In this document: positions 1,604 to 7,616 of the stretch, in pieces
How the letters are laid out: each line of letters begins with the position of its first letter
How positions within the stretch are numbered: position 1 is the first letter of the stretch
Source: Escherichia coli
GTDB taxonomy: Bacteria; Pseudomonadota; Gammaproteobacteria; Enterobacterales; Enterobacteriaceae
Assembly (NCBI RefSeq): GCF_022846255.1
Contig: NZ_AP025682.1
Reading direction: 5' to 3' (one strand)
DNA: 64,000 nt
Position numbers and translations under genes: made by a program
The notes under the pieces: generated by a model
The model's database searches: none
Seen by the model: the letters and a program-made list of their open reading frames with translations, nothing else
What the model was told of the DNA's origin: nothing

Positions 1604-1679
1604 TGGTGGGTCGTGCAGGATTCGAACCTGCGACCAATTGATTAAAAGTCAACTGCTCTACCAACTGAGCTAACGACCC
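1604..1679 (-). tRNA. lysT: tRNA-Lys (UUU)
   Basis: First tRNA of the operon on the minus strand; identical tRNA-Lys sequence. Confidence 0.9.
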
Positions 1680-1802
1680 ACTTTTTCGTTGCTTTCGGTT
1701 TTTTTGATATCCCGTGGCAACGGCGGCATATATTACTGATTTCAGACTTGAGCGCAACAAAAATTTCGATGTAGATCACTCAACTGCTTATGATTCGCAC
1801 GA

Positions 1803-1836
1803 CACGACCAGAAATAATGCGACTTCTGGTCGTGTG
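1803..1836 (-). other. 12-bp perfect-stem hairpin immediately 3' of cpoB, without a U-tract
   Basis: acacgaccagaa / ttctggtcgtgt with 10-nt loop, seen directly. Confidence 0.4.
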
Positions 1837-1843
1837 TTATGCA

Positions 1844-2635
1844 TTACATCGCGTTCAGACGTTTTTGCGCCTGTTTAGCGCCATCAGTACCAGGGTATTT
1901 ACTGATAACCTGCTGGTATACGGCTTTCGCTTTTGCGGTGTCACCTTTGTCCTGCATGATGACGCCGACTTTAAACATCGCATCTGCAGCCTTCGGTGAC
2001 TTCGGATAGTTTTTCACTACCGAAGCAAAATAATACGCCGCATCATCTTTTTTACCCTTGTTGTAGTTTAACTGACCCAGCCAATAATTGGCGTTTGGCA
2101 GGTAAGTTGAATCAGGGTAATTTTTGATGAAATTCTGAAATGCCACCATTGCGTCATCCTGGCGGGATTTATCCTGCACCAGCGCAATAGCTGCATTGTA
2201 ATCCGTGTTTGCATCACCGCTTTTCACCGGCGCGCCAGCATTCGCAGTACCAGCATCAGCTGTCGGCGTCGTTGATGCCGCCACACCGCTTTGATCGCCG
2301 CTGGTTGATTGCGCCGCTGCACCACCGCTGCTGAGGCTGTCGATCTGCAACAGGATCTGCTTTTGCCGCTCCACGACCTGATTCAGTTGATACTGATTTT
2401 CCTGAATCTGACCACGCAGGGAATCAATATCGGATTGATTATCAGAGAGTTGTTGCTGGAGTTGGGTTAAAAGCTGGCTGTGAGCATTAGAAATACGCTC
2501 AAGTTGAGTGACGCGGTCTTCGACCGAGCCTGAGCCGACACTACTGATTGGTGCCTGAGCAAAAGCGGCCCAGGGGGCCGCTATACCAACCAGTAACGAC
2601 AGACTCAATAGTTGATGTCTGAAGTTACTGCTCAT
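1844..2635 (-). CDS. cpoB: Cell division coordinator CpoB (YbgF), TPR periplasmic protein
   Basis: 263-aa ORF; translation matches remembered CpoB, last gene of tol-pal cluster. Confidence 0.95.
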   Translation of the reverse strand: MSSNFRHQLLSLSLLVGIAAPWAAFAQAPISSVGSGSVEDRVTQLERISNAHSQLLTQLQQQLSDNQSDIDSLRGQIQENQYQLNQVVERQKQILLQIDSLSSGGAAAQSTSGDQSGVAASTTPTADAGTANAGAPVKSGDANTDYNAAIALVQDKSRQDDAMVAFQNFIKNYPDSTYLPNANYWLGQLNYNKGKKDDAAYYFASVVKNYPKSPKAADAMFKVGVIMQDKGDTAKAKAVYQQVISKYPGTDGAKQAQKRLNAM

Positions 2636-7481: not shown

Positions 7482-7580
7482 TTTACATCCCGGTAATGCA
7501 ACAAAAGTTAGAGCTTTTAAACGCTGCTACTATACGCGCGCGATTGAGGTTTGGGAATGAGGGCAAGTTAAGGGAGCGTA

Positions 7581-7616
7581 AAAATTTATGGGCCTGACTC
7601 GGCCCATAAATTTTTA
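7581..7616 (-). terminator. Rho-independent terminator after ybgE (end of cydAB-cydX-ybgE unit)
   Basis: tttatgggcc-tgactc-ggcccataaa hairpin flanked by A/T runs. Confidence 0.6.

Follow-up and report, generated by a model that had tools for sequence, protein, structure and literature searches.

The first 5 kb of the window, the window being the whole stretch of 64,000 nucleotides of Escherichia coli DNA analyzed here, encode on their minus strand the tolA-tolB-pal-cpoB genes, the lysT operon with its seven tRNAs and nadA. The short interval between cpoB and lysT raises the question of how the cpoB mRNA comes by its 3′ end directly in front of a tRNA promoter, and what part is played in this by a perfect hairpin that follows the cpoB stop codon. 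A preliminary description of the sequence had suggested two roles for this hairpin, namely stabilization of the 3′ end of the tol-pal-cpoB mRNA and Rho-dependent or leaky termination insulating the lysT promoter. The features of the interval are collected in Table 1. In the MG1655 reference locus, cpoB occupies 779598-780389 and lysT is found at 780554, and the window differs from MG1655 at 2 of 201 aligned positions, none of which lies inside the hairpin.

Table 1. Positions in the window of the features between cpoB and lysT (TSS, transcription start site)
Feature	Position	Strand	Remarks
cpoB open reading frame	1844..2635	-	product 100% identical to CpoB; MG1655 b0742
cpoB stop codon TAA	1844..1846	-	-125 to -123 relative to the lysT TSS
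Spacer from stop codon to stem, 8 nt, UGCAUAAC	1836..1843	-	
Hairpin 5′ arm ACACGACCAGAA	1824..1835	-	GACCAG invariant; outer ACAC covaries with its partner
Segment between the arms, 10 nt	1814..1823	-	in RNA, 1822-1823 pair with 1814-1815; loop CGCAUU at 1816-1821
Hairpin 3′ arm TTCTGGTCGTGT	1802..1813	-	TTCTGGTC invariant
Steady-state 3′ end of cpoB mRNA	1799	-	MG1655 780434; -78 relative to the lysT TSS; Term-seq
Fis-like 15-mer GCATTATTTCTGGTC, from the loop G to the inner 3′ arm end	1806..1820	-	centre at -92; putative lysT upstream activating element
Fis-like 15-mer GTGCGAATCATAAGC	1786..1800	-	centre at -72; terminal G and C invariant in Enterobacteriaceae; putative
A/T-rich UP-like tract before the lysT -35 hexamer	1758-1770	-	sequence reading
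lysT promoter -35 hexamer TTGCGC	1752..1757	-	predicted; fully conserved
lysT promoter -10 hexamer TAATAT, followed by a GC-rich discriminator	1730..1735	-	
Main lysT operon TSS (G)	1721	-	Cappable-seq; 42 nt 5′ of mature lysT
lysT, first tRNA-Lys(UUU) of the seven-tRNA operon	1604..1679	-	

The hairpin and the 3′ end of the cpoB mRNA

A repeat search identifies a perfect inverted repeat with arms of 12 nt, ACACGACCAGAA and TTCTGGTCGTGT, which are 100% complementary, 10 nt apart and located on the transcribed (minus) strand, beginning 8 nt past the cpoB stop codon and ending 122 nt before mature lysT (1679). The preliminary description had the arms and the distance between them right and their position one base too high, at 1803-1836 instead of 1802-1835. 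In the cpoB-sense RNA, an added G·U and an added U-A pair extend the stem to 14 bp and leave a 6-nt loop, CGCAUU, and four bases (GCAU) of the spacer UGCAUAAC are able to pair with GUGC past the stem. The stem folds at −25.6 kcal/mol (z −6.1), whereas 200 dinucleotide shuffles average −10 and none of them folds as well. The 64-kb window contains seven distinct perfect hairpins with stems of 12 bp or more and loops of 3-12 nt versus 0.075 expected from dinucleotide shuffles, and the hairpin after cpoB is confirmed as real and beyond chance. The tail that follows the stem, CGUGCGAAUCAU, contains one U in its first 8 nt and no U-tract, as had been noted previously, and no A-tract is found upstream of the stem.

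Elsewhere in the window, positions 943-973 form a canonical, bidirectional-looking lysQ terminator, whose perfect stem of 13 bp lies between runs of A and T. Five more perfect short-loop hairpins of 12-16 bp, located at 7579-7616, 31062-31095, 32681-32713, 34677-34714 and 62675-62702, are probably terminators or REP-like elements.

The element after cpoB is single-copy in 5425 of 5426 complete E. coli genomes, with a per-genome median of one and a maximum of two places, and is at least 99% identical over 52 nt in 5377 E. coli genomes. Several readings of the hairpin were considered and discarded. A REP/BIME element is ruled out by the single copy per genome (5425 genomes), an RNase III substrate was set aside on account of the stem of just 14 bp, RNase III requiring about two helical turns, and a 3′-UTR sRNA of the Hfq type was set aside on account of the absent U-tail. 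An Rfam covariance-model search of positions 1795-1846 gives no match even at E ≤ 10. A promoter and terminator pattern scan does not flag the hairpin, and as the same scan missed both the lysQ terminator (943-973) and the lysT promoter, it is uninformative.

Published 3′-end maps place the end of the cpoB transcript at the hairpin. The Term-seq data of Adams et al. 2021 (PMC7815308) list a "primary" cpoB 3′ end at MG1655 780434 on the plus strand in two of three conditions, with scores of 12432 in LB at OD 0.4 and 5718 in M63. Counted from the stop codon at 780389, the stem occupies MG1655 780398-780431, which puts the 3′ end 3 nt past the stem. Mapping of 3′ ends had been named in the preliminary description as the check on the hairpin, with ends elsewhere counting against it, and its proposal that the hairpin stabilizes or defines the end of the tol-pal-cpoB mRNA gains support both from this end and from the covariation with G·U bias described below. 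The element is very probably the 3′-terminal stem-loop of the (tolB-)pal-cpoB mRNA. Such a role explains how this envelope and cell-division operon has a defined, stable 3′ end despite a distance of only 125 bp to the start of a very strong tRNA promoter.

How the end is made is a separate matter. Because the U-tract is absent, the hairpin would not be a canonical intrinsic terminator, and trimming is on balance somewhat favored over termination at the site. In the trimming model, RNA polymerase would pass the hairpin and transcribe further, into the promoter, leader or tRNA part of lysT, where either termination or the cutting of a co-transcript by RNase P or RNase E would release the transcript. 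The 3′-to-5′ exonucleases would then trim back to the hairpin, which would protect the mRNA from there on. The one tRNA-processing study examined documents no readthrough into lysT, no evidence of a cpoB-lysT co-transcript was found, and the SMRT-Cappable-seq supplements do not mention the cpoB or lysT genes. The literature on cpoB, lysT and terminators yielded no description of the hairpin, the 3′ end itself being already present in a public table.

True termination at about −78 relative to the lysT start, with the hairpin assisted by Rho/NusG or by a roadblock (Fis on the upstream activating sequence, UAS, or RNA polymerase on the lysT promoter), is unlikely. It would be in keeping with the precision of the 3′ end, 3 nt from the stem, and, given general footprint sizes, a polymerase at −78 would reach to about −60, the upstream edge of the UP-element promoter complex. 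A position 3 nt past a stem is nonetheless a typical signature of exonuclease trimming, Term-seq reports stable and not nascent ends, and termination finds no U-tract, no bicyclomycin-sensitive call and no region of C over G to act on. Adams et al. report no bicyclomycin-sensitive region at 780434, where the strong downstream promoter limits sensitivity, and the nearest Rho region, the only one reported nearby, is internal to cpoB at 779749 with a score of 1.74 (PMC7815308). The Rho assay uses windows of 800 nt, which here include the highly expressed tRNA operon, and the result is for that reason a weak negative. A rut-like stretch is absent downstream of the stem, the C/G ratio being 0.92 over the 122 nt to lysT with no 40-nt window above a C−G of +3. 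These observations lend no support to the Rho-dependent or leaky terminator that had been proposed to insulate the lysT promoter. The hairpin is located inside the promoter upstream region, and a hairpin within the UAS would be unable to shield the UAS from incoming polymerase.

The behavior of the end in later growth bears on the same choice. The end at 780434 is absent from the LB OD 2.0 list, in which a cpoB-internal end at 779674 remains with a score of 1766 and plus-strand scores reach down to about 1000-1030 (PMC7815308). The exponential-phase ratio predicts an OD 2.0 score of about 2300 for 780434. Simple protection does not predict its absence, and termination assisted by a roadblock draws some support from an end that is listed in exponential samples and not at OD 2.0 while the internal cpoB end persists, as Fis and lysT promoter activity are low in stationary phase. 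The absence may reflect growth-phase dependence of 3′-end formation, or it may reflect lower expression or curation thresholds, in which case it would not favor termination.

The internal end is an observation of its own. A GC-rich hairpin, GCGGCCCCCUGGGCCGC, followed by UUUU, is located at 2559-2581 on the minus strand, 76 nt inside the cpoB open reading frame and just downstream of an Rfam match to the CpoB_ybgF thermometer (2606-2700, 91.7 bits). The Term-seq "internal" 3′ end at this hairpin, MG1655 779674, has an intrinsic-terminator score of 5.16 and no Rho call, and the hairpin may cause premature termination or attenuation in the signal-peptide coding region.

Selection on the stem in Enterobacteriaceae

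For the comparison within the family, 80 Enterobacteriaceae loci were retrieved via CpoB and their 61 distinct hairpin regions aligned. The bases of the 14-pair stem can pair in 91.7% of cells of this alignment, compared with 36-58% after sliding of the partners. GC, AU and GU replace one another at the four outer pairs, and 40 cells are changed on both sides versus a shuffle mean of 15.3, a value reached by none of 500 shuffles. Cells without a Watson-Crick pair on the cpoB-sense strand are of the G·U type in 52 cases and of the A·C type in one. The wobbles affect four pair positions, which differ between genera, and therefore do not stem from one inherited event, and the great excess of G·U over A·C indicates that the stem is maintained on the cpoB-sense RNA and not on an antisense RNA or as a symmetric DNA site. 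The conservation check named in the preliminary description has a positive outcome in these 61 sequences, with the hairpin kept in Enterobacteriaceae and its outer stem covarying.

The inner part of the stem behaves differently. The six inner pairs never vary within Enterobacteriaceae (61 sequences), and at the next pairs every substitution is found on the 5′ arm (GACCAGGA, GACCAGTA, GACCAGAT). The 3′ arm sequence TTTCTGGTC and the loop base G1820 are invariant in the 61 sequences, as are positions 1806-1814, and the core does not vary in about 25 genera. This invariance of the stem sequence exceeds the needs of pairing alone, and pairing alone is, judging from the alignment, no explanation for an invariant loop base and a one-sided constraint. 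Most loci that contain both GACCAGAA and TTCTGGTC have 126 ± 1 nt between the 3′ arm and lysT, with outliers at 124-137.

A perfect palindrome with a core unchanged in about 25 genera at a fixed spacing from a promoter is also what would be expected of an operator, GACCAGAA-N10-TTCTGGTC, recognized by a dimeric Enterobacteriaceae DNA-binding protein regulating the lysT operon. This reading is highly improbable in view of the asymmetric conservation, the 5′ arm tolerating GACCAGGA, GACCAGTA and GACCAGAT with the 3′ arm unchanged, and of wobble-type substitutions, which preserve RNA pairing and not DNA symmetry. Furthermore, we know of no operator that fits the 16 bp between the GACCA and TGGTC cores; the half-sites of RutR, FadR and NemR are related and differ in spacing or order.

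A stem sequence more invariant than pairing needs could also be selected for the binding of a protein such as ProQ to the RNA, or the hairpin could form the 3′ end of a small RNA from the cpoB 3′ region. The Cappable-seq data contain a cpoB-internal TSS at about position 2058 on the minus strand (U00096.2 779398, score 16.7), preceded by only a weak −10-like sequence, TAAACT, and an RNA extending from this start to the mRNA 3′ end would be about 260 nt long. Both functions are compatible with a terminal stem-loop and have a low probability, as the literature on cpoB with ProQ or RIL-seq yielded no link, the RNA has neither an Hfq U-tail nor an Rfam family, and outside Enterobacteriaceae the structure is kept and the sequence is not.

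Overlap with the upstream region of the lysT promoter

The constraint on the 3′ arm is considered here together with the position of the hairpin relative to the lysT promoter. With an offset of +777 from U00096.2 to NC_000913.3, which we take to apply at this locus, U00096.2 779735 corresponds to 780512 and to window position 1721. The main lysT TSS in Cappable-seq data is located there, with a score of 67.9 (PMC4782308), nine bases past the TAATAT hexamer. The lysT promoter resembles rrn P1 promoters in its 16-bp spacer, GC-rich discriminator and UP-like tract. Relative to this TSS the hairpin extends from −114 to −81, and because the cpoB stop codon is located only 125 nt upstream of the lysT start, the hairpin must share DNA with the promoter upstream region. 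Its earlier placement as 3′ of cpoB is thus correct, and its placement upstream of the promoter is not, as it lies within the promoter upstream region. Two extra lysT Cappable-seq signals on the minus strand, at window positions 1686 (U00096.2 779770, score 77.4, 7 nt 5′ of mature lysT) and 1705 (U00096.2 779751, score 6.0), may come from a second start or be an artefact of processing.

The segment from G1820 to C1806, which comprises the loop G and most of the 3′ arm, reads as the 15-mer GCATTATTTCTGGTC, centered at −92, with G and C at its ends (both invariant in the 61 sequences) and a T-rich centre, a form that is also the form of the Fis core site (PMC4784862). A similar 15-mer at −72 is 20 bp away and thereby helically phased with it, and the positions of the two are conserved across four to five families. 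The E. coli 15-mer at −92 matches the Fis consensus at only 9 of 11 positions, with T at −3 and C at +2, and it has C-type bases at the ±8 positions, which in the F1 context lower Fis affinity about 30-fold (PMC4784862). The consensus alone has no discriminating power, as a scan of the window with at most one mismatch returns 145 matches versus 147 expected, and given this degeneracy, weight for a Fis reading was taken from position and conservation only. A table derived from RegulonDB/EcoCyc gives Fis as an activator of the lysT operon (PMC10100675), and stable-RNA promoters have helically phased Fis sites (PMC8099737). The literature on lysT and Fis yielded no mapping of a Fis site for lysT.

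Loci beyond Enterobacteriaceae were collected via representative CpoB proteins and their homologues and comprise Pectobacterium, Erwinia, Hafnia, Proteus and three further lineages (including loci L082 and L085), without Yersiniaceae. Each of these loci has a tRNA-Lys(UUU) gene after cpoB and a promoter that is essentially unchanged, with TTGCGC (three lineages have TTGCAC or TTGCGT) separated by 16 nt from TAATAT or TATTAT, which precedes a discriminator rich in G and C. The GACCAG/CTGGTC sequence is limited to Enterobacteriaceae among the loci compared. Strong hairpins of unrelated sequence are found in the same interval in Pectobacterium (−20.9 kcal/mol, z −4.4), Hafnia (−25.0 kcal/mol, z −5.6) and Proteus (−21.4 kcal/mol, z −5.7), likewise without a U-tract, which is missing from every relative compared. 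No significant hairpin is present at the site in Erwinia tracheiphila (z −0.6) or in two of the three further lineages, and that of L082 is weak (z −2.8). On these sequences, a hairpin after cpoB is a recurrent and not a universal feature.

For the relatives, the TSS was placed by the same rule as in E. coli and 15-mers were scored out of 11 against the Fis consensus. Matches of at least 10/11 are centered exactly at −92 in three families, represented by Pectobacterium (GAGCGGTTTTTGTGC, 10/11), Erwinia (GGGTGTTTTATGCAC, 11/11) and Hafnia (GTTTAATTTATGGGC, 11/11), the background of such matches being 0.0013 per position, and similar 15-mers occur at −72 or −71 in many lineages. As the compared lineages share descent, this positional agreement indicates a conserved element and not independent events. 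The −92 element is absent from the three further lineages, which also lack a strong hairpin. Because Erwinia has an 11/11 match and no significant hairpin, the −92 element would be independent of the stem, would act at the DNA level and would be older than the Enterobacteriaceae stem.

Two of these loci contain further arrangements. In Pectobacterium parmentieri (locus L086, positions 1990-2030), the hairpin arms coincide with Fis-consensus 15-mers centered at −112 (11/11) and −92 (10/11), so that two phased pseudo-palindromic sites are mutually complementary. In L085, whose CpoB is 51% identical, an 11-bp perfect inverted repeat, CGGAAGCGCAA...TTGCGCTTCCG, is found at 2260-2325, about 20-85 nt past the cpoB stop codon, and brackets the tRNA-Lys upstream region from a −71 Fis-like site to the −35 hexamer; it would be another case of promoter elements serving as hairpin arms in cpoB readthrough RNA.

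The coincidence of both Pectobacterium arms with Fis-consensus 15-mers, together with the invariance of the six inner pairs and the fixed promoter distance in Enterobacteriaceae, raises the possibility that the inverted repeat has no RNA function and is a by-product of promoter DNA such as half-sites or curved DNA, the mRNA 3′ end being incidental. DNA symmetry explains neither the outer covariation nor the 52 G·U versus 1 A·C, and changes in the inner stem are confined to the 5′ arm. Erwinia has the −92 element and no stem, the stems of Hafnia and Proteus are built from different sequences, and the E. coli 5′ arm, judged by its sequence, is not a Fis-like 15-mer, all of which make a pure by-product very improbable.

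Whether the 3′ arm doubles as a predicted Fis-type UAS site of the lysT promoter is evenly balanced on the sequence comparisons. In this arrangement the loop and 3′ arm would constitute the promoter upstream element, and the 5′ arm would have evolved to pair with that constrained sequence. One DNA segment would then be subject to two constraints, RNA pairing and the sequence of a promoter upstream element, and because of both the stem would be invariant in sequence and not merely in structure. Taken together, the data are best explained, with a probability of roughly 60%, by a terminal stem-loop of the cpoB mRNA with a trimmed end, the 3′ arm of which is shared with an upstream element of the lysT promoter. 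What is new in this is probably the overlap of the hairpin with the lysT upstream region, a modest point.

A closer connection between the two constraints can be envisaged, in which release at −78 is independent of a U-tract and assisted by a roadblock. A single 15-bp segment would serve Fis or the lysT promoter complex as DNA and the cpoB transcript, in its RNA form, as the 3′ arm of the hairpin, so that cpoB 3′-end formation would be coupled to tRNA promoter occupancy and hence to growth phase, and cpoB transcription would in turn modulate Fis activation of lysT. Such coupling is doubtful, its sole hint being that 780434 is missing from the OD 2.0 Term-seq list.

The shared arm has consequences for work at this locus and beyond. 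Deletions or scars placed just after cpoB would damage the lysT upstream region, and lysT promoter constructs that reach beyond −80 include the cpoB hairpin. For covariation-based RNA discovery, the case would be a useful caution that a constraint at the DNA level may fix the sequence of a stem.

Comparison with known systems

The cpoB hairpin shares with intrinsic terminators the size and stability of its stem-loop and a position after the gene, and differs from them in lacking both the U-tract and the upstream A-tract. With REP/BIME elements it has in common that it is a transcribed intergenic palindrome able to block exonucleases; unlike these, it is single-copy, and it bears no resemblance to what we take to be the REP consensus.

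On the promoter side, the candidate sites resemble the Fis-dependent UAS of tyrT and rrnB P1 in having 15-bp cores bounded by G and C, A/T-rich centres and two phased members, the tyrT Fis sites being located at −71 and −91, whereas the candidate −92 site of E. coli lysT is an imperfect match. To our knowledge, no case has been described in which a UAS site is at the same time the 3′ arm of an upstream mRNA's terminal hairpin.

With a tRNA gene following it directly in the same orientation, cpoB recalls secG-leuU, an mRNA-tRNA co-transcript separated by RNase P (cited in a study of valine-tRNA processing, PMC4176162), and an RNase P cut could likewise provide a provisional 3′ end for the cpoB mRNA. 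A difference is that lysT has its own strong promoter.

The closest parallel is found in the work of Dar & Sorek 2018, in which the steady-state 3′ ends of Rho-dependent E. coli transcripts are located directly 3′ of stable stem-loops that lack U-tracts, have the size and energy of terminator hairpins and block PNPase and RNase II after diffuse termination downstream (PMC6061677). The cpoB hairpin differs from this class in having neither a Rho call at its 3′ end nor a C>G bias downstream, where a strong tRNA promoter and a tRNA gene are found instead and release by RNase P or RNase E is possible. It shares with the class the stable stem-loop, the missing U-rich tail, the precise 3′ end a few nucleotides further on and the location in the 3′ UTR after the stop codon, and by these structural and 3′-end criteria the cpoB hairpin can be placed among the protective 3′ stem-loops without a U-tail, a kind of element already known.
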